Of a stretch of 32,000 nt of DNA, positions 1 to 18,495 are shown piece by piece. Position 1 is the first letter of the stretch. Each line of letters opens with the position of its first letter. The translations under genes were made by a program, and so were the position numbers. The DNA is taken from assembly GCA_934660865.1 (NCBI GenBank), contig CAKUIA010000001.1, positions 1-32,000 on the forward strand. Direction: 5' to 3'. The stretch comes from an uncultured Opitutales bacterium. GTDB taxonomy: Bacteria; Verrucomicrobiota; Verrucomicrobiia; Opitutales; Intestinicryptomonadaceae. The notes under the pieces were generated by a model that worked only from the letters and a program-made list of their open reading frames with translations, was not told the DNA's origin and did not search any database.

Positions 1-270
1 TTGCTAAGCTATAACCCTAAACCCCAGCAAAAAATATGCCCCGTAAACTGGCAGCGCCGTTGGCAAAAAATACGCAACAACGCAGGCTTTAGCGGCCGCT
101 GGGTGCAAGACGTTTTGCGCCACACCTACGCCAGCTTTTTTGCCAAACGTTTTAAAGACCTGCCGCGCCTACAGCTAAATATGGGGCACAGCAACCAAAT
201 GCTTTTGTGCCACCGCTACATCAACATGCGCAACATCTCCCGCCTTGAAGCCGAAAAGTTTTTTAAGTGA
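1..270 (+). CDS. Tyrosine recombinase / phage-type integrase, C-terminal fragment (5' part lies outside the window)
   Basis: The frame is open to the window edge. It shows the C-terminal catalytic pattern of tyrosine recombinases: ...DVLRHTYASFF... (HxxR box) and ...MGHSNQMLLCHRY... (GH...Y with the nucleophile Tyr). Confidence 0.7.
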   Translation: MLSYNPKPQQKICPVNWQRRWQKIRNNAGFSGRWVQDVLRHTYASFFAKRFKDLPRLQLNMGHSNQMLLCHRYINMRNISRLEAEKFFK

Positions 271-416
271 TAATTTGGCAACTTTACCGTTTGCATAAGC
301 CTTTTTATTGAGCTCTGGAATATATGCAGTTTGAAATAGCTTACATTTATCCAAGCAAAAAAAAGCGCTGACTTTTTGAGAAAGCCGCGCCTAAGTTGGC
401 GAATAAAACCTAGTTA

Positions 417-1295
417 TCAAACAGCAACGTCTCTTTTTGGAGAGGTGCCAAAATAGCGTTTATACTCGCGGCTAAACTGTGTGGGACTTTCGTAGCCTAC
501 GGCGTAGGCGGCGTTGGCAACGGTTTCGTTTTCGGAAATCATAAGCCTTTTTGCCTCGTGCAAGCGCAAATTTTTTTGATATTGAATTGGGCTAATAGAT
601 GTAACTTTGCGGAAGTGCCTATGGAATGTTGTAGGCGCCATATTCACATATTTTGCAAGTTCCTCTATCCTTACGGGTTTTTTAAAATTTGTTTTCAGCC
701 AGCCAACCGCCTTTGTTATTTGGTTGCTTTGGGTGCCAAGTGTGCAAAGTTGGCGAACGTGCCTGCCCATTGGGCTAATAAGCAGCCTTGTATAAATTTC
801 GTTTACAATAACGGGGGCAATAACCGGAATATCGTCGGGGGTGTCCAGCAATTTTAGGAGGCGCAAAAAGGCGTCCATTAAGCCCTCGTCGGCATCGGCA
901 ACCGCAAGGCCGTTAAAAACCTTGTCGCCCCTTATTTTGTCGAGCGGCATTTCGGCAATCATTTGCGAAATTTGCTTTAGGTTTAAATCAAGCGAAATTG
1001 TAAGCAAAGGTTTTTGCGGCGTTGCCTGCGCAATGCAGCTGGTGCCCGGTATATCTATGCCCGAAACCAGACACTGGTTTTCGTGATATGCCGTTTCTAT
1101 ATTGCCCGTAATTGCGCGTTTGCTGCCCTGTATAATAAGTATAATTTTCGGGGAATAAACGCACCTGTTATATCCGTTTTCGTGCTCTATTCTATGCGCA
1201 TAAAAACCCGGAATTGCCGTTTCGATAAAGTCTTCGTGAGGCAACAATTTTAAGACCAGACGTTTTAGCTGCGAATTTAAATTTGCAATACCCAT
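417..1295 (-). CDS. AraC/XylS-family transcriptional regulator
   Basis: 292-aa ORF with a C-terminal double HTH (ELAKYVNMAPTTFHRHFRKVTSISPIQYQKNLRLHEAKRLM...AYAVGYESPTQFSREYKRYFGTSP). The N-terminal ~190 aa look like an AraC_N-type ligand/dimerisation domain. It is co-directional with, and 93 nt downstream of, cbiO. Confidence 0.85.
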   Translation of the reverse strand: MGIANLNSQLKRLVLKLLPHEDFIETAIPGFYAHRIEHENGYNRCVYSPKIILIIQGSKRAITGNIETAYHENQCLVSGIDIPGTSCIAQATPQKPLLTISLDLNLKQISQMIAEMPLDKIRGDKVFNGLAVADADEGLMDAFLRLLKLLDTPDDIPVIAPVIVNEIYTRLLISPMGRHVRQLCTLGTQSNQITKAVGWLKTNFKKPVRIEELAKYVNMAPTTFHRHFRKVTSISPIQYQKNLRLHEAKRLMISENETVANAAYAVGYESPTQFSREYKRYFGTSPKRDVAV

Positions 1296-1321
1296 ATTTT
1301 TGCTACTATTTACCCCATACA

Positions 1322-1375
1322 GTTATAAAAAGATTTAAAATGTGTCAAATAAAAATTTGGCAGAATCGGGCAGAA
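1322..1375 (-). promoter_or_regulatory. Candidate promoter of the AraC-family gene with an adjacent direct repeat
   Basis: Read on the minus strand: TTCTGCC-cga-TTCTGCC (1375..1359, 10-bp period), then 10 nt, then TTGACA (1348..1343), N15, TATAAC (1327..1322). The ATG lies at 1295. The -35 hexamer is perfect but the 15-nt spacer is short. Confidence 0.3.
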
Positions 1376-1388
1376 AAATTTTTGCAGT

Positions 1389-2087
1389 TTAAATTAGCCC
1401 GCAGTTTTCCAAAAGGCTTTTGTTTGCAAGAATATCTTTTGTTCTGCCGAAAGCGGCAAGAGCGCCTTTGTTTAAAACCGCGCAATGTCCGCAAAGAGCC
1501 GCGGCAAAATCCAAATCGTGGGTAGTCATTAAAATTGTTTTGTTTAGCGATTTTAAAATGTCGGCCGTTTGCCTTTTGCATTTGCAGTCTAACAAGGCTG
1601 TAGGCTCGTCTAAAAGCAAAACTTCGGGGTTGGCCGCCAAAACCGAGCAAATTGCCACCCTCTTTTTTTCGCCGTCCGACAAATTTTGGATTGGGCGGTT
1701 GGCAAGGGGCAAAATGCCGTATTTTTCCATGAGGGCTTTTGCATTTTCCAGGGCAATTTGCTGCGGAATTTTGCGGTTTAAAAATCCGAACGCAATATCT
1801 TCTTGCACGGTGGAAAAGAAAAGCTGGTCGTCGCAATTTTGAAATACCAGGCCTGCCATACTCCTTATTTTAGAGAGGCTATGTTTTTCGAGCAAAACCG
1901 AATTTACGTAGATTTTGCCGCATTTCGGCTGCAAAAGCCCCATAATGGAATGCAGCAATGTTGTTTTGCCCGCCCCGTTTGCGCCTATTACCGCGCAACA
2001 GTCCCCCTTTTCGATTTCAAGCGAAAGCGAGCTTATGGCCGCAACATTGCCGCTGCGGCAAACGGTAAGGTCTTTAATTTTAATCAT
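1389..2087 (-). CDS. cbiO: ECF-type Ni/Co transporter ATPase (CbiO/NikO/LarO-like)
   Basis: Walker A GANGAGKTT, ABC signature LSDGEKKRV and Walker B LLLDEPTALLD are present. The start overlaps the cbiQ stop by 8 nt. Confidence 0.85.
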   Translation of the reverse strand: MIKIKDLTVCRSGNVAAISSLSLEIEKGDCCAVIGANGAGKTTLLHSIMGLLQPKCGKIYVNSVLLEKHSLSKIRSMAGLVFQNCDDQLFFSTVQEDIAFGFLNRKIPQQIALENAKALMEKYGILPLANRPIQNLSDGEKKRVAICSVLAANPEVLLLDEPTALLDCKCKRQTADILKSLNKTILMTTHDLDFAAALCGHCAVLNKGALAAFGRTKDILANKSLLENCGLI

Positions 2088-2850
2088 AAAAAAAGCTTTC
2101 TATAAAAAGGGGTATATTAAAAAATCTAAAAAACAAACTTGCCCCAGCAAAACACGCAAAAAATGCGGCGTCTTTAACGGTAAATTTTTGCGTTTGCCGT
2201 TTAAAGTTGCGGACATCGAAATTGCGGCACTGCATTGCGTTGTATATGGAATTTGCGCGGGCAAGCGTGCGCGTAAAAAGGCTTGCCAGCATTGTAGAAT
2301 AATGTGCAGATTTTATTTTTGGGTGCATGGGGCTGCGCAGTGCGTAGGCTTTTGCCATTCTTGAGGCCTCGCTGCAAATGCAGTTTAGGTAGCGTATTGT
2401 AAGCATAATTTGCACTACAACTATGCAGGGGATTTTAAGCTTTGCCAAAGCTCCCGCAATGTCGTTTGCGGGCGTTGTCTTTGCAAAAATTACCGATACT
2501 GCCACGCACAAATACGCCTTTAAAAGCAGCGTAAAAAGCGACAACATGCCAAAACTTACCCCAAAAGAAAAAACTTTAAACGCAGTTTTTGTGTCGATAA
2601 AAACGTTTGCAAACCCCGCAAAAAACGCAAGGCAAAGCGCGGGAATGGACTTCCTTAAAATTTCGCGTTGACCGATTTTGCACACAGCCCCCAAAAACAG
2701 CGGAAAGGCGAAATATACCGCCAAAGAAAAGGCGTTGTATTTGCCGAACGAGACAACGCACACAACAAACACGAACAACGCGGCCAATTTCGCCAAAGCG
2801 CCGGGCGTGTTGCGCATAGTGCAGTTGCGGGGCTGCAGGCTACTTTCCAT
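2080..2850 (-). CDS. cbiQ: ECF transporter transmembrane (T) component, CbiQ-like
   Basis: 256-aa polytopic hydrophobic ORF wedged between cbiM and cbiO with overlapping stop/start codons. The segment ...TIRYLNCICSEASRMAKAYALRSP... resembles the conserved coupling-helix region of ECF T components. The exact start is uncertain (11-nt overlap with cbiM if it is 2850). Confidence 0.7.
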   Translation of the reverse strand: MESSLQPRNCTMRNTPGALAKLAALFVFVVCVVSFGKYNAFSLAVYFAFPLFLGAVCKIGQREILRKSIPALCLAFFAGFANVFIDTKTAFKVFSFGVSFGMLSLFTLLLKAYLCVAVSVIFAKTTPANDIAGALAKLKIPCIVVVQIMLTIRYLNCICSEASRMAKAYALRSPMHPKIKSAHYSTMLASLFTRTLARANSIYNAMQCRNFDVRNFKRQTQKFTVKDAAFFACFAGASLFFRFFNIPLFIESFFYD

Positions 2851-3856
2851 TTAAGTTTGTTTTTGTTGCAAGTTTTACGGCAAAATACCCCGCAAACAGA
2901 AAGGCCGCCGTTATAAGCGAGCCAAACAGCCCTGCCGCCGCCGTAGAGGCGCTGCCGTTTAGCATAGGGGTTGAATAGTCGCCAAAAATTGCGGTGTTGT
3001 TTGCAATGTTTTCGCTGGCCAAATGCGCAGCACTTTTTTCGGCCACAATTTCGGTTTTGGCGGTATTTTGCAAAGACCATTCAAGCCCGTCGGGCTTTTC
3101 GCTGGCGTAAATGGAAAACAGCGAGCCGAAAACAAGTGCCGCCATTGCCACAATAAAAACCGCCCCCTTGTTTGACGGCAAAAACTTGCCGTCGCTTAGC
3201 CCGTTAAAAACAAAGGCGTTGGAACATTTAAGGGCCAACAGCACAAGGGCTGTGGCGACGCCTTCTACAAGGCCTATGGCCAAATGTATCGGCTGCATAA
3301 ACAAAAGAAATGTTTTAAAATCCAGCTCGGTTATGTCGGAGCACAAAGTTTCGAGCACAACGCAAAACGAGCCGCACTGCAAAGTTAGCACGCAAGACAA
3401 AACGCTTGCGGCTATAACCGCAAACTTGCCTTTGCTTTTGCGCACAATGGGCACAAAAAGCAAGGGGTAAGCAACAAAACACGCAAAAAAAGCCATATTA
3501 AAGGCATTGCAACCCAACGCCAAAATTCCGCCGTCGGCAAAAAACAAGGCCTGTATAAACAGCACCGAACTAAGCGCAATAAATGCGGGATAGGCCCCCA
3601 GTGCGGCCGCCAGCAAAATGCCGCCGCCAATGTGGCCGCTAGAACCCGTTGCCGGTATCGAAAAATTAAGCATTTGCGCCGCGAACACAAAAGCCGCCAT
3701 AACGCCCATTAAAGGAACGTTTAGCTTGCCGAAATTTTGGGCCGATTTCCTTGCCGAATAAAACAGCAAAAGCAAAAAAACAACCCACATTATGGCGCCT
3801 ACTTTTGCGGAAACCAGGGCGTCGGACATATGCATTGCAAGAACGGTATAAAACAT
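2840..3856 (-). CDS. cbiM: ECF substrate-capture component CbiM/NikM fused to a PDGLE (CbiN/NikN-like) C-terminal module
   Basis: Polytopic membrane ORF. The Met-His metal-binding N-terminus motif (MHMSDALVS) starts at residue 8. The core contains ...ATGSSGHIGGGILLAAALG.... The C-terminal ~110 aa contain PDGLEW (3080..3094) and a final TM helix. An AAGGAG Shine-Dalgarno (3864..3869) sits 7 nt upstream of the ATG at 3856. An alternative start is at 3835. Confidence 0.85.
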   Translation of the reverse strand: MFYTVLAMHMSDALVSAKVGAIMWVVFLLLLFYSARKSAQNFGKLNVPLMGVMAAFVFAAQMLNFSIPATGSSGHIGGGILLAAALGAYPAFIALSSVLFIQALFFADGGILALGCNAFNMAFFACFVAYPLLFVPIVRKSKGKFAVIAASVLSCVLTLQCGSFCVVLETLCSDITELDFKTFLLFMQPIHLAIGLVEGVATALVLLALKCSNAFVFNGLSDGKFLPSNKGAVFIVAMAALVFGSLFSIYASEKPDGLEWSLQNTAKTEIVAEKSAAHLASENIANNTAIFGDYSTPMLNGSASTAAAGLFGSLITAAFLFAGYFAVKLATKTNLNGK

Positions 3857-3859
3857 TTT

Positions 3860-4600
3860 TTAACTCCTTAAAATTAGGTGCGCGTTATAGGCGGCTCCGA
3901 AACCGTTGTCGATATTTACAACGCTAACCCCGTTAGCGCACGAATTTATCATAGAAAGCAAAGCAGAAAGTCCGCCAAAATTTGCGCCGTAGCCAACGCT
4001 TGTAGGCACCGCAATTACGGGAACGGCAACAAGCCCCGCCAAAACCGACGCCAACGCCCCCTCCATGCCGGCAACTGCAATTACAACTTTCGCCTTTCTT
4101 ATTTCGTCTATGCAGCCAAGCAGCCTGTGCAGCCCGGCAACACCGCAGTCGAAATATGTTTTTGTGCAATCTCCCAAAAAATTCAATGTAAGTTCGGCCT
4201 CCCTTGCAACGGGAATGTCGGAGGTGCCTGCCGTTATAATGGCAACTTCGCCAAGCGAATTTACGGGGCAATTTTCGCCTACCCTTACTATTTTTGCGGA
4301 TTTTTCGTACACGCAATTTTCGAAATTTTTTTGCAAAAGTTCGGCGATTTCCCCTGTTGCGCGGGTTATAAGAACGCCCTTTTGCCTCGCCAAAATTTTG
4401 CGGCAAATTTCAAGACACTGCCCCGGCGTTTTCGAGGCCCCGTATACGATTTCGCCCACTCCCGTTCGGCGCTTTCTGTCGAAGTCTATTTTGGTGTGGC
4501 CCATGTCGCAGCAAAACAGATTTTCTATTTCTTTGCCCGCGTTTTGCAGGTTAAGCGTGCCGTTTTTATAGGCGTTTAAAATTTCAAAAATTTCCTTCAT
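3860..4600 (-). CDS. larB: LarB, nickel-pincer nucleotide cofactor biosynthesis (NaAD carboxylase/hydrolase, PurE-like)
   Basis: 246 aa with ...RRTGVGEIVYGASKT..., ...VAIITAGTSDIPVAREA... and ...VIAVAGMEGALASVLAGLVAVPVIAVPTSVGYGANFGGLSALLSMINSCANGVSVVNIDNGFGAA. These are the PurE-like/LarB pattern. There is a 4-nt start/stop overlap with larE. Confidence 0.9.
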   Translation of the reverse strand: MKEIFEILNAYKNGTLNLQNAGKEIENLFCCDMGHTKIDFDRKRRTGVGEIVYGASKTPGQCLEICRKILARQKGVLITRATGEIAELLQKNFENCVYEKSAKIVRVGENCPVNSLGEVAIITAGTSDIPVAREAELTLNFLGDCTKTYFDCGVAGLHRLLGCIDEIRKAKVVIAVAGMEGALASVLAGLVAVPVIAVPTSVGYGANFGGLSALLSMINSCANGVSVVNIDNGFGAAYNAHLILRS

Positions 4601-5388
4601 ATCCTTACATTCATAGAGCCCGTTTTGTAGCCGGCCAAATCAAGCGAGCAGCGTTTAAAACCCAAAGAACTGGCCTCTTTGTTTATTTGGGCGGCGTTTT
4701 TTACAACCTTTTCGAAATCGCCTACGTTGCACTCTATCCTTACGGAATTTCCGTCGGTTCTCGCCCTCACTTTGCCTATGTCAAGGCTTCGCAAATAGCC
4801 TTCAAAGCCGTCTATTTTTTTGAGGGTTTTTGTCTCGATTTTCCTTCCGTGTTCAAGCCTTGTAAGCAGGCAGGCATAGGCGGGCTTTTCGGCAACTTCG
4901 GGCAGAATTTCGCGCGCAATTTGCCTTATCAAATCTTTGCCTACGCCGCATTCCAAAAAGGGGCTTTTTACCCCGAGCTCTTTTAAAGCCTTCATTCCCG
5001 GGCGGTAGTCCGACAAATCGTCGGCGGTTGTGCCGTCGCACAAAACACCCGCCTCTAGCGAAATTGCAGCCTTTTTAAATTTGCCGAAAATATTTTTTTT
5101 GCACAGATAACAGCGTTCGGGCGGATTGTACAGAATTTCGGTCGGTATGTTTTCTTCGGAAATTTTTACAAGTTTTACCCCCAGCTTTTTGCATAGAGTT
5201 TCGGCAAAAGAGCACTCGCTTTGCATTGCATACGGCATAACGGCGGTTATTGCAGTGCAGTTTTTTGCCCCCAATGTTTGCGCGCAAAAAGCCAAAAGCA
5301 CCGAGCTGTCCAGCCCGCCCGAAAGCGCAACGCAAACACGCCCAAAGCCTACAACCAGTTTTTTTAAGCTATCTATTTTCGAACTCAT
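4597..5388 (-). CDS. larE: LarE, ATP-dependent sulfur transferase of the nickel-pincer cofactor pathway (PP-loop ATPase)
   Basis: PP-loop motif VALSGGLDSSVL, a CxxC pair (ERCYLCKK) and ...KPAYACLLTRL... (position of the sulfur-donating/cluster Cys). It overlaps the larC stop by 20 nt. Confidence 0.9.
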   Translation of the reverse strand: MSSKIDSLKKLVVGFGRVCVALSGGLDSSVLLAFCAQTLGAKNCTAITAVMPYAMQSECSFAETLCKKLGVKLVKISEENIPTEILYNPPERCYLCKKNIFGKFKKAAISLEAGVLCDGTTADDLSDYRPGMKALKELGVKSPFLECGVGKDLIRQIAREILPEVAEKPAYACLLTRLEHGRKIETKTLKKIDGFEGYLRSLDIGKVRARTDGNSVRIECNVGDFEKVVKNAAQINKEASSLGFKRCSLDLAGYKTGSMNVRI

Positions 5389-6658
5389 TGCAAAGCATTT
5401 TCCTTACAACGCCTATGGCAAGCCCCGTTTTGCTGGATATTCTTTTGCAGTCTTCAAACTCGGGCTTTGCCTTTGTTTTCCCGTTAAACTCGGCAACTTT
5501 AAAGCTAACTTCGCCAAGCGACGAATTGAATTTTACGCATTTGCGCGAAATGCAAAACCTGTTTGCCGCAACAATTCTAACCCCCAAAGTTGTGGAGTTT
5601 TCGAAAACAAATTGTGCCGCTTTTTGCGCGTCCTTTTCAAAAACAAGGGCGCAAATTTTTGTTCCCAAGCGCGACTTTTTCATGGAAATTGCCTCCTGCC
5701 AAACGTCCAATGCGCCGACAGAAAACAGCCTTTCGCACAAATACGAAATGTCCTCGGCCGACATATCGTCGATATTACATTCTACAAGCGACATCTTTTC
5801 GCGCACAAGCGGCAAAGAGTCGGTATCTTCGCTTTCTACCAGGCTAATCCTTAAAATGTTGGGCAATTCGGGAGAATTTCGGTGCCCGATACCCACGCCG
5901 TTGGCTATAATCTTGCCGCTTATTTTTTCGGAAAAGCCGTCGCACAAAGCGGCAATAATGGCCGCCCCCGTAGGCGTTGTACATTCGTGCATAGCGCCGT
6001 TGAATTTTACGGGCATGCCCTTTACTATTTCGGCCGTGGCGGGAGCCGGAACGGGCAAAAGCCCGTGCGCGCATTTTACCGTGCCGCCGCCAAGCTCTAC
6101 GGCGGAACACACGAACTTGTCGGCGCCTACTATATCGGCGCAAACGGCGGCGGCAACTATGTCTATTATAGAATCTATTGCGCCCACTTCGTGAAAGCAA
6201 ACTTCGTCTATGTTTTTGTTGTGAACCTTCGATTCGGCCAGCGCAATTTTGTCGAATATTTTTAGCGCATAGATTTTGGCGCGCTGCGAAATTTTTGAAT
6301 TTTCTATAATCTTTTTTATTTCAAAATACGGACGGTGCAAATGCGAATGTACGTTGGCGTGCCCGCCGTGCGAATGTGCGTGTTCGCAGGAATGGGCATG
6401 CCCGTGCAGATGATGGTGTTCGGGCGAATGTGCGTCGCCCATATGCTCTGGCACGGGCAAAGTCTCGTCTATAACTTCGGCCTTTGTGCCCGAAATTCCG
6501 CCTCGCATATCGCGGCTAAAATTCAGGCGCCAGCCGTCTAAATTAAGCTTTTGCAATTCGCCGACAAGTACGTCTTTGTCTACGCCCAAATCCACGAAGG
6601 CGGCAATATTCATATCGCCGCTAATGCCCGCAAAACAGTTGTAATATAAAATTTTCAT
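5369..6658 (-). CDS. larC: LarC, nickel insertase (cyclometallase) of the nickel-pincer cofactor pathway, single unsplit ORF
   Basis: LarC/DUF111-type N-terminus MKILYYNCFAGISGDMNIAAF and a His-rich tract HMGDAHSPEHHHLHGHAHSCEHAHSHGGHANVHSHLH (6335..6445). I place the start at the ATG at 6658, not the ORF-track start at 6730. The extra 24 codons translate a palindromic intergenic element. Confidence 0.9.
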   Translation of the reverse strand: MKILYYNCFAGISGDMNIAAFVDLGVDKDVLVGELQKLNLDGWRLNFSRDMRGGISGTKAEVIDETLPVPEHMGDAHSPEHHHLHGHAHSCEHAHSHGGHANVHSHLHRPYFEIKKIIENSKISQRAKIYALKIFDKIALAESKVHNKNIDEVCFHEVGAIDSIIDIVAAAVCADIVGADKFVCSAVELGGGTVKCAHGLLPVPAPATAEIVKGMPVKFNGAMHECTTPTGAAIIAALCDGFSEKISGKIIANGVGIGHRNSPELPNILRISLVESEDTDSLPLVREKMSLVECNIDDMSAEDISYLCERLFSVGALDVWQEAISMKKSRLGTKICALVFEKDAQKAAQFVFENSTTLGVRIVAANRFCISRKCVKFNSSLGEVSFKVAEFNGKTKAKPEFEDCKRISSKTGLAIGVVRKMLCNEFENR

Positions 6659-6684
6659 GCAAAATAAAAAGTGTTTTGCCCCCG

Positions 6685-6713
6685 CAATTTTTGCGCAAAA
6701 TGCGCAAAAATTG
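6685..6713. promoter_or_regulatory. Perfect 13-3-13 palindrome (CAATTTTTGCGCA-aaa-TGCGCAAAAATTG) upstream of larC
   Basis: Read directly. The arms are 6685..6697 and 6701..6713 and are exact reverse complements. The element lies in the 81-nt gap between the reductase stop (6740) and the larC ATG (6658). No U-tract follows on either strand. Confidence 0.5.
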
Positions 6714-6739
6714 CCGAAGCGTAAATGCAAAAAACGGTT

Positions 6740-8524
6740 CTACTTTTTTGCCGCAAACTTGTCGTCTATAATTTTAACGCATTGCTCGGGCGTGCCCGCG
6801 TTTTTGCATGCGCTTTCCATAGGGCACATTCCGTCGCGCTTTGCGTTTTGAATGAAAGGCACAAGGTTTTTGTACGAAACTTCTATCCTTGCCTTTTTTA
6901 ACATAGCCAAAGCGGGGCTGCTTAAAGTTTCGGCATACACTTGCGAAACCGCCCCCATTGCAAAAACGGCAGCAGCCGCCTTGCCCACCGCCTTGTCGGC
7001 AACTATTGCGCCCTTTAGCAGCGCGGGCTCGTCTTTGTATATTTTATAAAGTTCGTCCAACCCGCGGCCTGTATAGGTGCGAATGTCGCCGTTGCCTATA
7101 ACAAGGGTATAGTTTTTGCCGTCTTCGGCAAACTTTGCCTTTACATCGCCGATTAAAGCCGCCGTGCGCTTTAGGTTTTTAACATAGGCGTCTATGCGGC
7201 GCAGCTCTTTGGGAATGTCTATGCCCTGCGGGCAGTGCGGGCGGCACTGGTCGCAACCCGTGCAGTGGCTTGCCTGCCTAAGCTTCGGAACGGAGCGGTC
7301 GTAGCCTACAAGGTAGGCGCGGCGCGCCATGGCGTAGTTTTTGTCCAAAGTGCTTTCGGGCGTTAAACGCTCGTTTAGGCATTTGTTGTAGTGCAGCAAA
7401 ATTGCGGGAATATCCAGCGCATACGGGCACGGCATACAATATTTGCAGTCGTTGCAGGGTATGTTGTTAAATTCGAGCATTGTTTTTGCAATTCCTTCCA
7501 AAAACTCCAGCTCTTCGGCGGTAAGCGGCTTTAGCGGCGCAAAGCTGCGAAGATTGTCCTTTAAATGCTCCATTTTTGCCATTCCGCTAAGAACGGTTAA
7601 AACTTTGGGGAAAGTTCCCGCAAAGCGGAACGCCCACGAAGCAACGCTGCGGTCGGGCTCTTTTTGCTTAAATTCGGGAACTATTGTGTGCGGTATAGAC
7701 GAAAGCCTGCCGCCCAAAAGAGGCTCCATTATAACGGCGGGAATATTGCGCTTTTCAAGCTCCCCATACAGATATTCGGCGTTTGTGTTGCTTTTGTTTA
7801 TCTCTTTGGCGTGCTTCCAGTCTATGTAGTTTAGCTGAATTTGCACAAAGTCCCATTTGTATTCGTCGTGCTTCGAAAGCAGGTAGTCGAAAACCTTTAT
7901 GTCGCCGTGGTACGAAAAACCGAGATTGCGTATTTTGCCCTTTTTGCGCTCCTCCAGCAAAAAGTCCAAAATGCCGTTGTCTATGTAGCGCTGTTTAAAG
8001 GCCTGCATGCCCGAACCGGTGCCCACCGCGTGCAAAAGCATATAGTCGATATAGTCTACCCTTAGGTTTTTAAACGAGTTTTCGTACATCTTAATCGAAG
8101 CCTCGCGCGGGTGCGTGGCCGTCGCAAAGTTGGAAAGCTTTGTGGCTATAAAATATTTGTCGCGCGGGTGCCTGCTTAACGCTATGCCAGTGGCCTTTTC
8201 CGATTCGCCCCTGCAATATGCCGGAGACGTGTCGAAATAGTTTACCCCGTTGGCTATCGCATAGTCTACAAGCTCGTTTACGGCGTTTTGGTCTATAATG
8301 CCGCCAGCTTCCCTGGCGGTTTTGCCGTCTATCGAGGGCCAGCGCATGCAGCCGAAACCCAAAAGCGAAACCTTTTCCTTTGTCTTTGGATTTTCGCGCA
8401 TTGTCATTTCGCCGTACTTTTCGGGCTTTGAATTGTCGGAACACCCGAAGAGTGCGGCCGACGCCGCAGTTGCCGAAATACCTTTAATAAAAGTTCTTCT
8501 TTTGAAAGTGTTTTTGTTTTCCAT
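6740..8524 (-). CDS. Tat-signal aldo/keto reductase with C-terminal Fe-S motifs (COG1453-like) fused to a TM1506/DUF1893-like domain
   Basis: The N-terminus KRRTFIKGISATAASAALFGCS has a twin-arginine motif, an h-region and a possible lipobox Cys. The AKR core contains GFGCMRWP, NYFDTSPAYCRGESE, YIDYMLLHAV, GKIRNLGFSYHG, WDFVQIQLNYIDW and VLSGM. Cys motifs are CNDCKYCMPCP and CTGCDQCRPHCPQGIDIP (7232..7456). The last ~125 aa (6743..7117) read YTLVIGNGD...GAIVADKAVGKAAAAVFAMGAV...GMCPMESAC. A GGA-containing SD-like element precedes the ATG. Confidence 0.8.
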   Translation of the reverse strand: MENKNTFKRRTFIKGISATAASAALFGCSDNSKPEKYGEMTMRENPKTKEKVSLLGFGCMRWPSIDGKTAREAGGIIDQNAVNELVDYAIANGVNYFDTSPAYCRGESEKATGIALSRHPRDKYFIATKLSNFATATHPREASIKMYENSFKNLRVDYIDYMLLHAVGTGSGMQAFKQRYIDNGILDFLLEERKKGKIRNLGFSYHGDIKVFDYLLSKHDEYKWDFVQIQLNYIDWKHAKEINKSNTNAEYLYGELEKRNIPAVIMEPLLGGRLSSIPHTIVPEFKQKEPDRSVASWAFRFAGTFPKVLTVLSGMAKMEHLKDNLRSFAPLKPLTAEELEFLEGIAKTMLEFNNIPCNDCKYCMPCPYALDIPAILLHYNKCLNERLTPESTLDKNYAMARRAYLVGYDRSVPKLRQASHCTGCDQCRPHCPQGIDIPKELRRIDAYVKNLKRTAALIGDVKAKFAEDGKNYTLVIGNGDIRTYTGRGLDELYKIYKDEPALLKGAIVADKAVGKAAAAVFAMGAVSQVYAETLSSPALAMLKKARIEVSYKNLVPFIQNAKRDGMCPMESACKNAGTPEQCVKIIDDKFAAKK

Positions 8525-8555
8525 ATTAAAAAATCCTTCTTTTGCAAAAGGTTAA

Positions 8556-10073
8556 CTACAATATGTTGTGAACTAAAACCGCCTCTACGCAGATTGCCGA
8601 AAGCGGACGGGCCGGGCACAAATTCTCGCATGCGCCGCAGCCTATGCAGCGGGCTTCGTCTACAACGGGCACCTTGCGCGATTTCGGGTTTTTGGCGTCT
8701 TTTGCCACCATTGTAATTGCGCTTGTCGGGCACTGCCTAAAGCAGTTGTCGCACTGCATTTCGTCGGTATTTACTATGCAGCGGCCCAAATGCACCTTTG
8801 CCATGCCGATTTGAACCGAAGACTTTTCCGCCATGCTTACAGGCAATATTGCGCCCGTCGGGCAAACTTTTGAGCACTCTATGCAGTCGGTTGCGCAATA
8901 ACCGCGCAAATAGCTCATATTAGGCTGCATAAAATTACCAAGTTTGTAGCTGGGCTCTAGAACATGCGAAGGACACGCCGAAACGCACAACTGGCATGCC
9001 GTGCACTTTTCCGACAAGTGTGCCGCGCTTTGCGCGCCTGCGGGAACTAGCGGAATTTCCCTTTCGGGGTTTTTGCGCGGTTTAATAGGGGCAAAACCGC
9101 CGTCTACGGTTTTTTCGGCGGCGTTTGCCGTGGCCGAGGCCGCCACCGTAAACAACGTCGCAAAAAAGCCGCGCCTGCCCTTTGATTTGCCTAAATCTAC
9201 CTTTTTCGGCGAAAGCCTGTTTGCCGTGTTTTTCAAAACGCCCTCGTTTTTCCTGCCCAATGCAAACTTATACGAAATTGCCGAATTTCTGCACTTTTTT
9301 ACGCAGTTAAAGCAATCTACACAGCGCGAATAGTCTATCTCGTGCGCCTTTGGGTCTATACATTTTGCCTTGCAGTTTCTCGCGCACAAGCCGCACGAAT
9401 TGCATTTCGACAAATTTATAATGGGCCTGAAAAACGCGAACCGCGAGAAAAACCCCAAAAAGGTGCCAACGGGGCAAACCGTGTTGCAATAGCCCCTGCC
9501 CGTGCGCCATGCAAAAACGGCAACAACTGCAAAAGTGGCCACGGCCACCGCCAATATGGCAAAGCCCTTAAACCAAACTTCTACGGGGTAAAAGGTATAT
9601 CCGCCCGCCTTTTCGGAGAAAAACGACAACACGTTTTCGCCCAACGCCCAAATTGGGGCAAACAAGTTCGATGCTATTCTGCCGTATGCGCTATACGGCG
9701 CAATTAAAGCCGCCACCGAAACAAAACCCAGCGCAAACACCGCAACAAACGCGGCCAAAAACGCCATTCTTACGGCAGTTTTTGGCTTTGCATACGCAAA
9801 TTTGTTGCGCTTGCGCGAGGCCGCCACATGCGAAACAATGTCTTGAAAAACGCCCAGCGGGCATATAACCGAACAGTATATGCGGCCGAAAAGCAGCGTC
9901 AACAAAAGCAAAATTGCAACCGCTAAAAAGTTTGCGGCAAGCAATGCGGGCAAAAACTGCATTTTGGCCAAAAAGCCAATTTCATTTTGCGCCGTGCCCG
10001 AAAAGTCGACAAACAGCCACGTTATTGCGCAAAAAAATACCGCGGCAAAAACAATCCTTAATCTGCGTAACAT
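8556..10073 (-). CDS. Membrane polyferredoxin: NapH/MauN-like N-terminal half fused to a NapG/MauM-like C-terminal half
   Basis: The N-terminal half has several TM helices, two CX3CP motifs (CSVICPLG, CNTVCPVG) and two ferredoxin motifs (CNSCGLCARNC, CVDCFNCVKKC). An internal GRRGFFATLFTVAASATANA segment lies at 9120..9188. The C-terminal half has LVPAGAQ plus four cluster motifs (CTACQLCVSACP, CATDCIECSKVCP, C...CDNCFRQCP, CIGCGACENLCP). An AAGGA SD sits 7 nt upstream of the ATG. Confidence 0.75.
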   Translation of the reverse strand: MLRRLRIVFAAVFFCAITWLFVDFSGTAQNEIGFLAKMQFLPALLAANFLAVAILLLLTLLFGRIYCSVICPLGVFQDIVSHVAASRKRNKFAYAKPKTAVRMAFLAAFVAVFALGFVSVAALIAPYSAYGRIASNLFAPIWALGENVLSFFSEKAGGYTFYPVEVWFKGFAILAVAVATFAVVAVFAWRTGRGYCNTVCPVGTFLGFFSRFAFFRPIINLSKCNSCGLCARNCKAKCIDPKAHEIDYSRCVDCFNCVKKCRNSAISYKFALGRKNEGVLKNTANRLSPKKVDLGKSKGRRGFFATLFTVAASATANAAEKTVDGGFAPIKPRKNPEREIPLVPAGAQSAAHLSEKCTACQLCVSACPSHVLEPSYKLGNFMQPNMSYLRGYCATDCIECSKVCPTGAILPVSMAEKSSVQIGMAKVHLGRCIVNTDEMQCDNCFRQCPTSAITMVAKDAKNPKSRKVPVVDEARCIGCGACENLCPARPLSAICVEAVLVHNIL

Positions 10074-10272
10074 TGAACAATCCTTTTGTTAGATTAACTG
10101 CAACATTTATATTATAGTTGCGGTTTTTTGTAAATATATATTTCTTTCAAAAATCTGCCTAATTGCACCAAATGTAAATATATTGAAAATCCAAAAAGGG
10201 GAAAGTTGGCCCCGAAAAATATTCAAAAAACATTTGAAAAAATTCCGTACAACAATGAAAATTCCGTAAAAT

Positions 10273-11376
10273 ATGGATTCGACGAAAAGATTTAATGTGC
10301 TTTTGATTTCTCCAAATCTGGGCGACTATATGACAAACAAGCTGGCCTTATGCCTGTCCGAAAACAAGCACGTTGCAAAGTTTACGCTTGCGGGCATGTC
10401 CAGAAGCCGCAATGCCGACAAAAACGGCATTGCCCTTGCCCGTTTCGAATCGGCAAACTTTTTCGGCAGAATTTTGCAATACCCTGCAATACTTTTCAAA
10501 ATAAGAAAACTGCTAAAAGACAGCGACGTTGTCGTTTCGTGGTCGCTAGACACCTCGCTTTTATGCGCGCTTGCCGCCAAATTTACGGGGCTTAAAGGCA
10601 AAAAGTTTGTATATTTTTACAGCGACGTGCACTACATGTGCACAAAAAAAGACTCTCTTATATCCAAAATTTTGCGCTTTGCGGAATGTTTTAACGCAAA
10701 GCATGCAAATGTAGTGGCCTTTACAAGCCCTTTGTATAAAAGCGAATATTTCGAAAAGATTGCGGGGCTTAAAATAGACAACTACGTTTTGGTGGAAAAC
10801 AAAGTCCCCAAAACTTCGGTCGAAAAGGTATTGGGCACTTTTGACCCCAAAAATAGGGATTTCTCGCAGCCGACCATAGGCTACTTCGGGCTGCTGTGCT
10901 ATAAGGCCACCTACAAATTTATGGTAAAAGCGGCAAAATCGGGCATAAAGACATATTTTAGGGGCAAGTTTTCGCCGCAAACAACAGACCATATAGATTC
11001 GTCTATAGAATATTCCGGGCCCTATAAAAACCCCGACGACCTGCCCGAAATGTATTCGAAAATAAATATGCTGTATATAATACACGATTTGGCCCTCGGC
11101 ACAAACAACCAGTGGGCAATGTCGAACCGCTTTTACGACGCATTGATGACCCAAACGCCCATTGTTGTGCAAAAAGGCACGGCAAACGAAAAGTTTGTGC
11201 TCGAAAACGACATAGGAATTTCGGTAGACATATACAATCCCGAAGAATCCGTAAAAAAATTGAAAGCCGTAAAAAAAGACGACCTTGTTAAATGGCACAA
11301 CAACATTGCAAGGCTAGCTCCCCATTACTATATGCTAACCGACGAATACGACAGGCTTTTCGAAAAAATAATGTAG
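10273..11376 (+). CDS. Putative glycosyltransferase (GT-B-like), weakly supported function
   Basis: This 367-aa ORF has natural amino-acid composition, whereas its antisense ORF is junk. The C-terminal segment ...NRFYDALMTQTPIVVQKGTANEKFVLENDIGISVD... parallels the E-x7-E/nucleotide-sugar region of GT4-type enzymes. The start is uncertain (ATG at 10273 or 10330) and there is no clear SD. Confidence 0.4.
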   Translation: MDSTKRFNVLLISPNLGDYMTNKLALCLSENKHVAKFTLAGMSRSRNADKNGIALARFESANFFGRILQYPAILFKIRKLLKDSDVVVSWSLDTSLLCALAAKFTGLKGKKFVYFYSDVHYMCTKKDSLISKILRFAECFNAKHANVVAFTSPLYKSEYFEKIAGLKIDNYVLVENKVPKTSVEKVLGTFDPKNRDFSQPTIGYFGLLCYKATYKFMVKAAKSGIKTYFRGKFSPQTTDHIDSSIEYSGPYKNPDDLPEMYSKINMLYIIHDLALGTNNQWAMSNRFYDALMTQTPIVVQKGTANEKFVLENDIGISVDIYNPEESVKKLKAVKKDDLVKWHNNIARLAPHYYMLTDEYDRLFEKIM

Positions 11377-14551: not shown

Positions 14552-16714
14552 ATGAAAATCATAAAGCGCAACGGCTCGGAGGAAAATTTCGAGATTCAAA
14601 AAATTTTAACCGCCGTAACAAAGGCAAATCAAACCATAGAGTTTAAAGACGCGTTAACTTCGACCCAAATAAAGGAAATAGGCGAATATGTTTTGGGCGT
14701 TTGCGACGCGCTAGACAGGGCGTTGTCGGTAGAGGAAATCCAGGATATTGTGGAAACGCAAATAATGCAAAAAGGCGCCTACGAAGTCGCAAAAAAATAC
14801 ATACGCTACCGCTATGTGCGCAACCTTATCCGCCACGCAAACACAACCGACAACAACATTCTTACCCTTATAGAATGCAACAACGAAGAGGTAAAGCAGG
14901 AAAATTCCAATAAAAACCCCACCGTTAACAGCGTACAGCGCGACTATATGGCGGGCGAAGTTTCCAAAGACATTTCAAAGCGCATACTGCTGCCCCCCGA
15001 AGTTATATCCGCCCACGAGGAAGGCCTTATACACTTCCACGATATGGACTATTTTGCCCAGCACATGCACAACTGCGACTTGGTAAACCTCGAAGACATG
15101 CTAAACAACGGCACTGTAATTTCGGGCACATATATAGACAAGCCCAAAAGCTTTGCAACAGCCTGCAACATTGCAACCCAAATTATAGCGCAGGTTGCCA
15201 GCAACCAATACGGCGGGCAAAGCATAACCCTTACGCATTTGGCTCCGTTCGTGCAAATCTCGCGCGAAAAGATTAGCGCGGCCTTAAAGGAAGAGCTTAC
15301 CGAAGGCGGCGTTTCGATGGAGTCCAGCAAATTCGACGCCATTGTGGAAAAACGCCTGCGCGAAGAGATTGCACGGGGCGTGCAGATTATACAATACCAG
15401 GTTGTAACGCTTATGACCACAAACGGGCAAGCCCCCTTTGTAACCGTGTTTATGTATTTGGGCGAAGCGCGCAACGAACGCGAAAAGAAAGACCTTGCAA
15501 TGATTATCGAAGAGGTCTTAAGGCAAAGATACAAGGGCGTAAAGAACGAAAAAGGCGTTTATATTTCGCCGGCTTTCCCAAAACTTATATACGTTTTAGA
15601 GGAAGACACAATGAACGAAAACTCGCCCTACTACTACCTTACGGTTTTGGCGGCGAAGTGCTCGGCTAAAAGGCTTGTGCCCGACTATATCAGCGAAAAG
15701 AAAATGAAGGAGCTAAAAGAGGGCAACTGCTTCCCGATGATGGGATGCAGGTCGTGTTTGGCTCCCTGGCGCGACGAAAGCGGCAACTACAAATTCTACG
15801 GCCGCTTTAACCAAGGGGTGGTAACAATAAACCTTGTAGACATTGCCTTAAGCAGCCAAAAAGACGAAAAGCTTTTCTGGAAAATTTTTGACGACAGGCT
15901 TGAAATTTGCTTTAAGGCCCTAATGAGCCGACACAACCGCCTAAAGGGCACGCTTTCCGACGCCGCTCCCATTCTTTGGCAGCACGGCGCAATAGCGCGC
16001 CTAAAGAAAGGCGAAACTATCGACAAGCTACTGTACGGCGGCTACTCTTCGATTTCGCTGGGCTATGCGGGCCTTTGCGAATGCGTAAGGTATATGAAAG
16101 ACAAAAGCCATACCGACCCCGAAGCCACACCCTTTGCCATTGCCGTTATGAAGCACTTAAACGAAGCTTGCGCAAAGTGGAAAAAGCAGACAAACATAGG
16201 CTTTGCCCTGTACGGAACGCCTTTGGAAACTACAACATACCGCTTTGCAAAATGCCTGCAAAAACGCTTCGGCAAAATAGAGGGCGTAACCGACAAAAAC
16301 TACATTACAAACAGCTACCATGTGCACGTTACCGAGCCTATCGACGCGTTCTCGAAGCTGGCGTTTGAATCGCAATTTCAGGCGTTGTCGACAGGCGGCG
16401 CAATAAGCTATGTGGAAGTTCCCAACATGCAAAACAACATCGAGGCCGTTTTGCAGATTATGAAGTTCATTTACGACAATATTATGTATGCGGAACTAAA
16501 CACAAAAAGCGACTATTGCCAAGTGTGCGGCTTCGACGGCGAAATAGAAATCGTAAAGGACGAGTCGGGCAAGCTCATTTGGAAATGCCCCAAATGCGGC
16601 AACACCGACCAGACAAAAATGAATGTTGCGCGCAGAACCTGCGGGTATATAGGCACGCAGTTTTGGAATCAGGGCAGAACGCAGGAAATTAAAGACCGCG
16701 TATTGCATTTGTAG
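14552..16714 (+). CDS. nrdD: Anaerobic (class III) ribonucleoside-triphosphate reductase
   Basis: 720 aa with an N-terminal ATP-cone (MKIIKRNGSEENFEIQKILTAV...). It also has a C-terminal Zn-ribbon CQVCG...CPKCG and the glycyl-radical motif RRTCGYIGT. Confidence 0.95.
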   Translation: MKIIKRNGSEENFEIQKILTAVTKANQTIEFKDALTSTQIKEIGEYVLGVCDALDRALSVEEIQDIVETQIMQKGAYEVAKKYIRYRYVRNLIRHANTTDNNILTLIECNNEEVKQENSNKNPTVNSVQRDYMAGEVSKDISKRILLPPEVISAHEEGLIHFHDMDYFAQHMHNCDLVNLEDMLNNGTVISGTYIDKPKSFATACNIATQIIAQVASNQYGGQSITLTHLAPFVQISREKISAALKEELTEGGVSMESSKFDAIVEKRLREEIARGVQIIQYQVVTLMTTNGQAPFVTVFMYLGEARNEREKKDLAMIIEEVLRQRYKGVKNEKGVYISPAFPKLIYVLEEDTMNENSPYYYLTVLAAKCSAKRLVPDYISEKKMKELKEGNCFPMMGCRSCLAPWRDESGNYKFYGRFNQGVVTINLVDIALSSQKDEKLFWKIFDDRLEICFKALMSRHNRLKGTLSDAAPILWQHGAIARLKKGETIDKLLYGGYSSISLGYAGLCECVRYMKDKSHTDPEATPFAIAVMKHLNEACAKWKKQTNIGFALYGTPLETTTYRFAKCLQKRFGKIEGVTDKNYITNSYHVHVTEPIDAFSKLAFESQFQALSTGGAISYVEVPNMQNNIEAVLQIMKFIYDNIMYAELNTKSDYCQVCGFDGEIEIVKDESGKLIWKCPKCGNTDQTKMNVARRTCGYIGTQFWNQGRTQEIKDRVLHL

Positions 16715-16717
16715 AAT

Positions 16718-17569: not shown

Positions 17570-17653
17570 GGTGGGGTATCCAAGTGGTCAAAGGATGCGG
17601 ACTGTAAATCCGTCCGGTTATGCCGTTCGTGGGTTCGACCCCCACCCCCACCA
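17570..17653 (+). tRNA. tRNA-Tyr (anticodon GTA), long variable arm, no encoded CCA
   Basis: Hand-folded cloverleaf. The acceptor GGTGGGG pairs with CCCCACC. The anticodon stem-loop is GCGGA-CTGTAAA-TCCGT. The variable arm is CGG-TTATG-CCG. The T arm is GTGGG-TTCGACC-CCCAC and the discriminator is A. Confidence 0.9.
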
Positions 17654-17669
17654 CTGTAAAGTGATTCAC

Positions 17670-17754
17670 GCTCAGGTGGTGAAATTGGTAGACACGTACG
17701 CTTGAGGTGCGTATGCTTAACGGCGTGCGGGTTCAAGTCCCGCCCTGAGCACCA
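17670..17754 (+). tRNA. tRNA-Leu (anticodon GAG), long variable arm, CCA encoded
   Basis: The acceptor GCTCAGG pairs with CCTGAGC. The anticodon stem-loop is TACGC-TTGAGGT-GCGTA. The T arm is GCGGG-TTCAAGT-CCCGC and the 3' end is ACCA. It lies 16 nt downstream of tRNA-Tyr. Confidence 0.9.
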
Positions 17755-18480: not shown

Positions 18481-18495
18481 TTTCGTGCTCCTTTC

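Follow-up and report, generated by a model that had tools for sequence, protein, structure and literature searches.

A larB-larC-larE and putative nickel-importer gene cluster adjoining a predicted Tat-exported aldo-keto reductase and its polyferredoxin partner in an uncultured Opitutales bacterium

Here we describe a gene cluster of an uncultured Opitutales bacterium in which the genes for synthesis of a nickel-pincer cofactor (larB, larC, larE) and for an importer lie next to the genes for a predicted exported aldo-keto reductase (AKR) with iron-sulfur (Fe-S) motifs and for a membrane polyferredoxin. The DNA analysed comprises positions 1 to 32,000 of contig CAKUIA010000001.1, and this 32-kb stretch is called the window throughout. 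Reading frames were assigned with Pfam and NCBIfam. Nine of them, all on the minus strand and all co-directional, reach from the polyferredoxin to a regulator of the AraC type. In the direction of transcription, the eight genes ahead of the regulator and the features belonging to them are as follows.

10074..10272, minus strand: upstream intergenic region, candidate operon promoter (199 nt, AT-rich, divergent from the gene at 10273-11376)
8556..10073, minus strand: polytopic polyferredoxin of 505 amino acids, NapH-NapG fusion (Pfam Fer4_5, Fer4, Fer4_7, Fer4_9)
6740..8524, minus strand: oxidoreductase of 594 amino acids, composed of AKR, two [4Fe-4S] motifs and DUF1893/TM1506 (Aldo_ket_red E=8e-36, Fer4_17, TM1506/DUF1893 E=2e-38)
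8441..8524, minus strand: signal region of the oxidoreductase, residues 1-28, KRRTFIKG followed by the lipobox LFGC (codon check and alignment)
7490..8362, minus strand: AKR catalytic domain, residues 55-345 (PF00248 E=8e-36; phmmer to 9YEB; hhalign)
7229..7456, minus strand: two Cys motifs of the [4Fe-4S] type (Fer4_17 and Fer4_9 matches)
6758..7117, minus strand: DUF1893/TM1506 domain, residues 470-589, deaminase-like fold with a nucleotide-binding pocket (PF08973 E=2e-38)
6686..6712, no strand assigned: perfect 12-bp inverted repeat with a 3-nt spacer, AATTTTTGCGCA-AAA-TGCGCAAAAATT, within the 81-nt gap between the AKR gene and larC
5369..6658, minus strand: LarC, CTP-dependent nickel-inserting cyclometallase with a His-rich stretch (TIGR00299 196 bits, cut-off 90)
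4597..5388, minus strand: LarE, sulfur insertase of the CXXC-C type (TIGR00268 248 bits, cut-off 150)
3860..4600, minus strand: LarB, carboxylase/hydrolase of nicotinic acid adenine dinucleotide (NaAD) (NF033503 278 bits, cut-off 175)
2840..3856, minus strand: S component of an energy-coupling factor (ECF) transporter, CbiM/NikM-like and fused to a PDGLE (N-like) domain (PF01891 E=5e-47, PF13190 E=4e-19)
2080..2850, minus strand: ECF T component, CbiQ/LarQ-like (PF02361 E=1e-21)
1389..2087, minus strand: ECF ATPase, CbiO/LarO-like (PF00005; best NCBIfam matches ECF_ATPase_1 and ECF_ATPase_2)

An initial annotation of this DNA had listed nine co-directional minus-strand genes, gaps of 31 nt and 81 nt upstream and downstream of the reductase gene, and junctions from larC to cbiO that overlap or lie within 3 nt of each other; all of these coordinates and distances were reproduced. 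The 31-nt spacing between polyferredoxin and AKR genes covers 8525-8555 and the 81-nt spacing between the AKR gene and larC covers 6659-6739, counted from the larC ATG at 6658, a start whose product agrees with the N-terminus of the family (MKxLYYDCFAGISGDMN). The overlaps amount to 20 nt between larC and larE, 4 nt between larE and larB, 11 nt between cbiM and cbiQ, and 8 nt between cbiQ and cbiO; larB and cbiM are 3 nt apart, and 93 nt lie between cbiO and araC. With this operon-like spacing, the eight genes for importer, biosynthesis, enzyme and electron wire form a compact unit. The intergenic region upstream of it contains a sigma-70-like sequence (TAGGCA-17-TATATT, 10161..10133, minus strand), which is a consensus match only, in a region whose number of such matches does not exceed that of shuffled sequences. 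No terminator-like or promoter-like site was found in the 81-nt or the 31-nt gap, and no T-tract terminator in the former, by a consensus scan tuned to sigma-70 and to E. coli-type terminators, which may not fit Verrucomicrobiota.

The central protein is the oxidoreductase of 594 amino acids. In its signal region, the motif RRTF of the twin-arginine translocation (Tat) type occupies residues 9-12 and the lipobox LFGC residues 25-28, and the stretch between KRRTFIKG and C28 reads ISATAASAALFG. The family alignment shows no variation at R9, R10, F12 and C28, and precomputed Pfam matches of several homologues include TAT_signal. The combination of a twin-arginine motif resembling S/T-R-R-x-F-L-K, a hydrophobic stretch and a lipobox leads to the prediction of a Tat-exported lipoprotein; the initial annotation had spoken of a Tat-signal reductase, which holds for the Tat part and has to be corrected in that the signal ends in a lipobox. 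In the AKR domain, the catalytic tetrad positions are D98, Y103, K129 and H165, and two further residues, H206 (codon 7907-7909) and E267 (codon 7724-7726), are invariant in the family. The two cluster motifs, C357-x2-C360-x2-C363-x2-C366-P and C421-x2-C424-x2-C427-x3-C431-P, comprise eight Cys residues, all of which are invariant. The C-terminal DUF1893 domain aligns to PDB entries 1VK9 (TM1506) and 9E9A and contains an invariant D510 within ADKAVGK. In TM1506, an ADP-ribosylated Asp and an unidentified ligand were found in the DUF1893-type pocket (PMC3239186), and D510 probably corresponds to this Asp, provided that the PDB chain carries a 12-residue tag. The fused DUF1893 domains also share three conserved Cys residues, C567, C573 and C582 (residues 565-594; 6740-6830), only the first of which is present in TM1506; if periplasmic, these could form a disulfide or a metal site.

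The AlphaFold model of the protein has a mean predicted local confidence (pLDDT) of 76, the barrel and the DUF1893 domain being well predicted and the Fe-S region poorly. It is an AKR TIM barrel, with Foldseek TMt values of 0.75-0.80 to AKR14A1 and L-galactose dehydrogenase; 9YEB, the structure discussed below, was not among the matches listed by Foldseek against a copy of the PDB up to April 2026, and this comparison supports the AKR fold only. The family is large, with at least 8000 homologues below 1e-10 and more than 600 matches in species-representative genomes, and consists mostly of proteins from gut Bacteroidales (Muribaculaceae, Parabacteroides, Alistipes, Prevotella, Bacteroides). 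The best species-representative match to the window AKR comes from a metagenome-assembled genome (MAG) of the Opitutales.

The polyferredoxin encoded upstream had been called NapH/NapG-like in the initial annotation, a likeness that stands, with the refinement that a single chain represents a NapH-NapG fusion. The best NCBIfam matches are below the cut-offs (NapG 72.8 versus 269; NapH 62.6 versus 234), by margins so wide that the protein is not an orthologue of either. A hydropathy scan places transmembrane (TM) segments at residues 4-28, 37-76, 97-130 and 164-192; CxxxCP motifs occur at 67 and 196 and cytoplasmic CxxCxxCxxxC motifs at 224 and 251. R300 and R301 precede FFATLFTVAASATANA, a weakly hydrophobic fifth TM segment that scores under the TM threshold. 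This internal segment (GRRGFFATLF...ATANA) is followed by four CP-ended Cys motifs between residues 357 and 487, a region that by its motifs is a putative periplasmic NapG-like domain. For the family of NapH-NapG fusions, joint insertion by Sec and Tat and a periplasmic location of the NapG-like domain have been shown experimentally (Tooke et al., eLife 2017, PMC5449189). The window protein resembles that dual Sec/Tat polyferredoxin in its four NapH-like TM helices with CxxxCP and cytoplasmic [4Fe-4S] motifs, in the twin-arginine pair before a weak fifth TM segment, and in the periplasmic NapG-like domain with four clusters (PMC5449189). It differs from the NapGH quinol dehydrogenase in that its partner is an AKR-FeS lipoprotein and not NapC/NapAB.

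LarB, LarE and LarC are all present and all score over the curated equivalog cut-offs. LarC is a single polypeptide that also matches the LarC2 model NF052512 (124 bits, cut-off 50) and PF01969 (E=1e-128). LarE contains the PP-loop SGGLDS together with C93, C96 and C173 in a motif scan. In the LarE of T. maritima, the corresponding residues C92, C95 and C172 (CXXC-C) mark the [4Fe-4S]-dependent, non-sacrificial type (PMC9283937), so the NCBIfam label 'sacrificial sulfur transferase' is probably wrong for the window LarE. The lar cluster of L. plantarum (larA-larB-larC-larD-larE and larR(MN)QO) is matched by the three biosynthetic proteins and by an ECF transporter of the nickel type with fused M and N components plus Q and O. 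The window differs from it in the absence of LarA, LarD and LarR, in a LarE of the CXXC-C [4Fe-4S] type, as in T. maritima, rather than the sacrificial single-Cys type, and in a LarC made as one polypeptide. As stated in the initial annotation, no LarA-like (DUF2088) protein is evident: neither LarA/DUF2088 nor DUF362 was matched among the scanned reading frames of at least 150 amino acids in the window, a set that leaves out frames inside longer frames of the opposite strand.

Genomes with larBCE and without larA make up approximately 15% of genomes (PMC11796402). The statement of the initial annotation that LarA-family enzymes are the only characterised clients of the nickel-pincer cofactor was correct through 2024 and is now outdated by two further enzymes. 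The first is an ornithine cyclodeaminase of 2025 that depends on the cofactor form NPAD, as cited in reference 22 of PMC13524815. The second is NphT, an AKR that Semersky et al. (Nat Chem June 2026; PMC13524815) found by mining LarC neighbourhoods without LarA. NphT has the AKR fold and binds the nickel-pincer mononucleotide (NPMN) covalently, with H144 on the nickel and K200 as the tether, as seen in the 1.3-Å structure PDB 9YEB. In total, 427 AKRs were reported to co-occur with larBCE in the absence of larA; among the lar-linked AKRs, 34% have both the His and the Lys and 40% the His only, and non-covalent binding was suggested for the His-only class (PMC13524815). NphT itself occurs in the cytoplasm as a soluble monomer and exchanges hydride between two substrates without net electron flow (PMC13524815). 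In the LarA enzymes likewise, the hydride is returned to an organic substrate and no electrons exit the active site.

For comparison with the window AKR, the phmmer alignment was used to rebuild a 149-residue fragment of NphT, to which homologues of up to 83% identity were found. Of the NphT homologues, 28 were aligned, the first of which keeps the NphT numbering (D47, H106, T142, H144, I199, K200, W218, Y219); many of the homologues are C-terminally truncated or frameshifted, and the alignment to the window AKR stops before W218/Y219 and G248. This profile was compared by hhalign with an alignment of 24 members of the window family. 9YEB is the second-best PDB sequence match to the window AKR (phmmer, E=1e-11), and the two profiles match with an hhalign probability of 98.8%. 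By both methods, GITGHG of NphT falls on GFSYHG of the window AKR, which places T142 on S204 and the nickel ligand H144 on H206, and the contacts D47 and H106 are matched by D98 and H165. All 24 members of the family alignment carry H206. Like NphT, the window AKR is thus a TIM barrel that keeps the nickel-ligand His and adjoins larB, larC and larE without a nearby larA; unlike NphT, it is fused to two [4Fe-4S] motifs and DUF1893, carries a Tat signal with a lipobox, and is paired with a membrane polyferredoxin. On balance, and with some reserve, we favour the reading that the cluster is a self-contained nickel-pincer redox system, in which the window AKR would be an Fe-S-wired periplasmic variant of the nickel-pincer AKRs.

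Points in its favour are the predicted periplasmic site of the enzyme, the absence of LarA from the window, the two gaps without terminator-like or promoter-like sites, and the likeness of the polyferredoxin to fusions whose Tat dependence has been shown experimentally. Support for this reading comes also from gene neighbourhoods examined from the side of LarC. The same nine genes are found in L007 and L008 (LarC 79% identical), of which L007 is a locus 94% related to the window, and a LarC 81% identical to that of the window was recovered from an 'Opitutales bacterium'. The order polyferredoxin-AKR-larC-larE-larB-cbiMN-Q-O is retained in L092 (LarC 58%, AKR 79% identical) and, with one inserted gene, in L091 (LarC 54%, AKR 79% identical). 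In the window, L007/L008, L091 and L092 alike, the AKR adjoins larB, larC and larE without a nearby larA, and DUF1893 is present in all four lar-linked loci (window, L007, L091, L092). The insertion in L091 (4396-5022) encodes a NadD-like protein of 208 amino acids (CTP_transf_like) and overlaps both the AKR stop codon and larC, an arrangement that is hard to square with independent neighbours. Its product could supply NaAD for LarB or could adenylylate the mononucleotide cofactor to NPAD. In L092, the cluster lies beside a microcompartment locus (1-6118; BMC and EutN shell proteins, aldehyde dehydrogenase, PTAC, acetate kinase and a class II aldolase), a vicinity that hints at aldehyde metabolism and may be coincidental.

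A wider survey anchored on LarC covered 80 metagenome loci with LarC proteins 35-51% identical to that of the window. Proteins with an AKR domain and two [4Fe-4S] motifs, 369-414 amino acids long, adjoin lar genes in seven of them. The six that are full-length lie within the following stretches.

L101, 4152-9879: lar-adjacent AKR-FeS, cytoplasmic or with Tat signal
L104, 12802-14984: lar-adjacent AKR-FeS, cytoplasmic or with Tat signal
L111, 6346-8551: lar-adjacent AKR-FeS, cytoplasmic or with Tat signal
L130, 13044-19222: lar-adjacent AKR-FeS, cytoplasmic or with Tat signal
L139, 8827-9948: lar-adjacent AKR-FeS, cytoplasmic or with Tat signal
L152, 1118-2362: lar-adjacent AKR-FeS, cytoplasmic or with Tat signal

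All six have a His at the nickel-ligand position of NphT, in a motif of the general form G-x-[ST]-x-H, here GFS[YF]HD or SFSFHD, and five have MEP..GG, the sixth (L139) having MGPVGGG; the seventh protein (L119) is a C-terminal fragment that ends short of both motifs. These proteins come from unrelated environmental lineages, often stand in tandem and together with regulators of the MerR type, and in L111 also with a NicO nickel permease; the cytoplasmic ones lack DUF1893. Polyferredoxins of the NapHG type, 33-42% identical to that of the window, adjoin lar genes in 11 of the 80 loci. Both elements meet in L130, where larC, larB and larE are accompanied by two AKR-FeS proteins, one of them with a Tat signal, and by a polyferredoxin and a Tat-signal DUF362 protein.

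There is also a second module, in which a DUF362 protein of about 300-335 amino acids, followed by a polyferredoxin of the NapH-NapG type, adjoins larC-larE-larB.

L115, 7325-9820: DUF362-polyferredoxin module
L122, 7338-9830: DUF362-polyferredoxin module
L133, 7320-9808: DUF362-polyferredoxin module
L142, 7266-9752: DUF362-polyferredoxin module
L131, 7298-9818: DUF362-polyferredoxin module
L125, 7267-9743: DUF362-polyferredoxin module
L124, 6890-9491: DUF362-polyferredoxin module
L093, 13564-16474: DUF362-polyferredoxin module
L174, 7348-9843: DUF362-polyferredoxin module
L175, 14851-17778: DUF362-polyferredoxin module

A twin-arginine motif (MKRR[DE]F...) marks the N-terminus of the DUF362 protein in all eight loci that were read at the sequence level, L174 (a Bacteroidales MAG) and L175 being known from gene calls only, and larB is often followed by a WbqC-like gene or by one for a His-rich membrane protein. 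DUF362 and LarA/DUF2088 belong to one Pfam clan (PMC11770544), and the DUF362 protein has the look of a further exported client of the nickel-pincer cofactor, again with a polyferredoxin as its wire. Two candidate clients, unrelated and both predicted to be exported, thus have wire and biosynthetic neighbours in common, which is the strongest circumstantial support for a link from the pincer cofactor to Fe-S clusters. A separate search with a Bacteroidales LarC returned 3937 representative clusters at E<=1e-30, the top ten of which are named as 'Bacteroidales bacterium' or 'Spirochaeta' MAGs; a literature search on LarC and LarB in Bacteroidetes yielded nothing but spurious word matches. The human-gut LarC locus L141 was considered as a Bacteroidales source and set aside, with a GC content of 57% and uninformative neighbours.

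A different picture emerges when the AKR is used as the anchor, and several observations weigh against the favoured reading. Among the best 80 of more than 600 species-representative matches, mostly from gut Bacteroidales, the polyferredoxin gene lies immediately upstream of the AKR gene in 73, and DUF1893 is fused or encoded immediately downstream in 39 and wholly absent in 41, but larB, larC and larE were found within 10 kb of the pair in none of these 80 other species. Even close relatives of the window AKR, 69-74% identical (L009, L010, L011), have no lar genes in cis. The conserved core is therefore the polyferredoxin and the AKR-FeS protein, with or without DUF1893, and a cis link to lar is not general; the AKR is far commoner than this link, and for these species the model requires lar genes in trans. 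The equivalent of H206 is invariant in lar-less loci as well, and the presence of this His need not point to the cofactor. The window AKR lacks the tether lysine: VIKAIA of NphT falls on IMEPLL, which sets I199-K200 opposite M266-E267, and E267 is invariant in the window family. The NphT contacts W218 and Y219 fall outside the alignable region. The LarA negative covers the 32-kb window, and a larA or another client may be located elsewhere in the genome. We know of no nicotinamide-type cofactor that passes single electrons to Fe-S clusters without a flavin, and a transfer from the nickel-pincer to such clusters would thus be unprecedented. Finally, the palindrome in the 81-nt gap could be a sign that the lar genes are regulated separately. 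With the His kept and the Lys missing, the window AKR belongs to the uncharacterised 'His without Lys' class, and binding of the cofactor, if any, would be non-covalent.

The palindrome itself is present as an identical copy in L007; in L092, a different, GC-rich hairpin occupies the same gap, and in L091 the gap is absent. It may serve as an operator or, at the mRNA level, as an element or hairpin that sets the ratio of structural to biosynthetic expression, and is neutral with respect to a functional link between AKR and lar.

A first alternative explanation is that the modules are independent neighbours. The polyferredoxin-AKR pair would then be a stand-alone periplasmic carbonyl oxidoreductase linked to quinones, the AKR either holding a firmly bound NAD(P) that passes through Tat with it, as in the glucose-fructose oxidoreductase of Zymomonas, or working without a nucleotide cofactor, and the products of larCEB and of the Ni-transporter genes would supply an enzyme encoded elsewhere, for instance a LarA homologue, a DUF362 protein or a different AKR. 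In favour of it are the 80 species without lar genes near the pair, the three lar-less relatives, the missing lysine, and the gap with its palindrome. It agrees also with the earlier description by Iyer, Zhang, Rogozin and Aravind (NAR 2011; PMC3239186), who noted in Bacteroidetes and Firmicutes a neighbourhood that joins TM1506-like genes with those for an AKR bearing a Cys-rich module and for a protein with about five TM segments; this trio resembles the one in the window, but sensing or binding of NAD/ADP-ribose was proposed for it and neither lar nor nickel was mentioned. The explanation is opposed by the experimentally established use of the cofactor by an AKR fold (PMC13524815). It is opposed further by an adjacency that holds down to 54% LarC identity and includes overlapping genes in L091, and by the occurrence of other His-bearing AKR-FeS proteins and polyferredoxins next to lar genes in independent lineages. 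In addition, the canonical Asn of the AKR 'SN' motif, a contact of the nicotinamide carboxamide, is probably replaced by Tyr in the window AKR. We regard independent neighbours as possible, yet unlikely.

The outcome is mixed for the proposal of the initial annotation that the neighbouring AKR uses the cofactor as a client other than LarA: it gains from the NphT precedent, from H206, from synteny at LarC identities of 54-79% and from the lar-adjacent AKR-FeS proteins elsewhere, and loses by the replacement of K200 by E267 and by the 0 of 80 species with lar genes in cis. The cross-genome neighbourhood check that had been called for is likewise divided, with recurrence from the LarC side (L007/L008, L091, L092 and 7 of 80 loci) and lar genes within 10 kb in none of the 80 other species from the AKR side.

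A second alternative places the client outside the barrel, in the DUF1893/TM1506 domain, which would hold the pincer nucleotide or a NaAD-derived ligand, or in the polyferredoxin. The nucleotide-like ligand and the ADP-ribosylated Asp of the TM1506 crystal (apparently D510, with the tag of 12 residues assumed; PMC3239186) and the presence of the domain in all four lar-linked loci fit this idea, but the cytoplasmic AKR-FeS proteins next to lar genes and 41 of the 80 polyferredoxin-AKR loci do without DUF1893, and the nickel-ligand His lies in the AKR barrel, which makes it improbable.

The third alternative concerns the metal. Every NCBIfam equivalog model for a cobalt CbiM scores the CbiM fusion below its cut-off (best 108 versus 219); the true N-terminus of this protein is likely MHMSDA, at residue 8, and the CbiM-PDGLE fusion is the equivalent of Lar(MN). 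An Rfam search confirmed the statement of the initial annotation that no cobalamin riboswitch precedes the transporter: no riboswitch (cobalamin, NiCo or other) was found in 1-11000 at E<=1, nor across the window at the gathering score. The L. plantarum Lar(MN)QO system, encoded with lar genes, was reportedly shown by Desguin in 2014 to import nickel. That the transporter is instead a cobalt (CbiMNQO) importer for cobalamin metabolism, placed among lar genes by chance, is suggested by the word 'cobalt' in its Pfam and NCBIfam family names and by B12-dependent methylmalonyl-CoA mutase genes near the AKR in one relative (L010), but we reject it as very improbable in view of the sub-cut-off cobalt models, the absent riboswitch, importer genes that overlap or abut larB, the same fused MN-Q-O set after larB in L007, L091 and L092, the NicO nickel permease at the same position in L111, and the L. 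plantarum precedent.

In the nickel-pincer redox system that we favour, Ni2+ would be taken up by the ECF transporter of the Lar(MN)QO type, and NaAD would be converted in the cytoplasm to the nickel-pincer nucleotide by LarB, the [4Fe-4S]-type LarE and LarC. The cofactor would be held non-covalently in the AKR domain, with H206 on the nickel and no lysine tether, and we suggest that DUF1893 may bind its nucleotide part or help to load it. The folded holo-protein with its two [4Fe-4S] clusters would be exported by Tat and anchored by a lipid at C28. Free NAD(P)H is unavailable in the periplasm, so an exported AKR would need a pre-loaded cofactor. The glucose-fructose oxidoreductase of Zymomonas mobilis is a parallel in so far as this periplasmic sugar oxidoreductase is exported by Tat with a pre-bound, non-dissociable NADP, but it has a Rossmann fold and neither Fe-S clusters nor a membrane link. 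In the periplasm, the AKR site would exchange hydride between a carbonyl or alcohol substrate, probably a sugar or an aldehyde, and the pincer cofactor, and electrons would pass from the clusters of the enzyme via the NapG-like clusters and the NapH-like membrane and cytoplasmic part to menaquinone or a cytoplasmic partner. Flow in either direction would be possible; oxidation of an aldose or an aldehyde hydrate to the benefit of menaquinone would be exergonic, whereas reduction of a simple aldehyde by menaquinol would not. Loading of the cofactor, electron transfer from pincer to Fe-S, the substrate and the direction of flow are the parts of this scheme that we infer.

The ninth gene of the cluster encodes the regulator.

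417..1295, minus strand: AraC_N/HTH_18 regulator (PF06719 and PF12833), 93 nt downstream of cbiO

It is probably a separate transcription unit, and no other gene is as well conserved between the window and L007 (98% identity). Homologues 51-54% identical precede the pair of polyferredoxin and AKR genes in L009 (5210-6091) and L011 (about 7169), two loci without lar genes, and the regulator may control this pair rather than the lar genes. In both loci the regulator gene adjoins the pair alongside a small AKR, a CMD-cupin protein and a flavodoxin-like gene, a neighbourhood that hints at a role in carbonyl stress. Next to the AraC gene of the window, the 3' end of a gene of the phage integrase family (1-270, plus strand) is found, which is absent at the syntenic place in L007 and may mark the boundary of a mobile element. 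Outside the cluster, the window contains an anaerobic ribonucleotide reductase (nrdD/nrdG, 14552-17257), and two adjacent tRNA genes (17570-17751) followed by a stretch of low GC content (37-42%) with an overlapping pair of reading frames of 98 and 117 amino acids on the minus strand (18127-18792) that resembles toxin-antitoxin systems of the HigB/HigA type, a likeness noted without a family search. The segment 20587-28128 encodes a type II secretion/type IV pilus F-like protein, two tandem ATPases of the type II secretion system (T2SS-E) with MshEN domains, and a 738-amino-acid protein that combines a long N-terminal extension with a Rho-like C-terminus. The nrdD/nrdG genes and those of the last segment would fit an anaerobe of the PVC group (Planctomycetota-Verrucomicrobiota-Chlamydiota).

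The initial annotation had considered the system undescribed. An AKR beside larBCE as a non-LarA client is already published, but the Fe-S fusion, the export as a Tat lipoprotein, DUF1893 and the coupling to a polyferredoxin are not treated in the main text of PMC13524815, which contains none of the terms iron-sulfur, Fe-S, 4Fe-4S, ferredoxin, fusion and Tat; a full-text literature search found no other paper that pairs nickel-pincer cofactors with aldo-keto reductases. AKR-FeS(-DUF1893) proteins and Tat-exported DUF362 proteins of the LarA clan appear as two unrelated client folds with the same wiring. We tentatively put forward, as a doubtful but possible extension, that the pincer cofactor converts two-electron hydride chemistry to one-electron Fe-S chemistry and that a class of Tat-exported 'nickel-pincer respiratory oxidoreductases' is wired by polyferredoxins of the NapHG type. 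If the proposal is true, the cluster would be the first case of a pincer cofactor feeding or draining an electron-transport chain and would contain the first periplasmic nickel-pincer enzyme. It would also provide a function for the AKR-FeS family of the COG1453 type, for DUF1893/TM1506 and for the orphan NapHG-fusion polyferredoxins, all of which are very common in gut Bacteroidales. Should the abundant Bacteroidales pairs depend on a cofactor made in trans, the periplasmic metabolism of gut anaerobes would commonly include nickel-pincer enzymes that have so far gone unrecognised.

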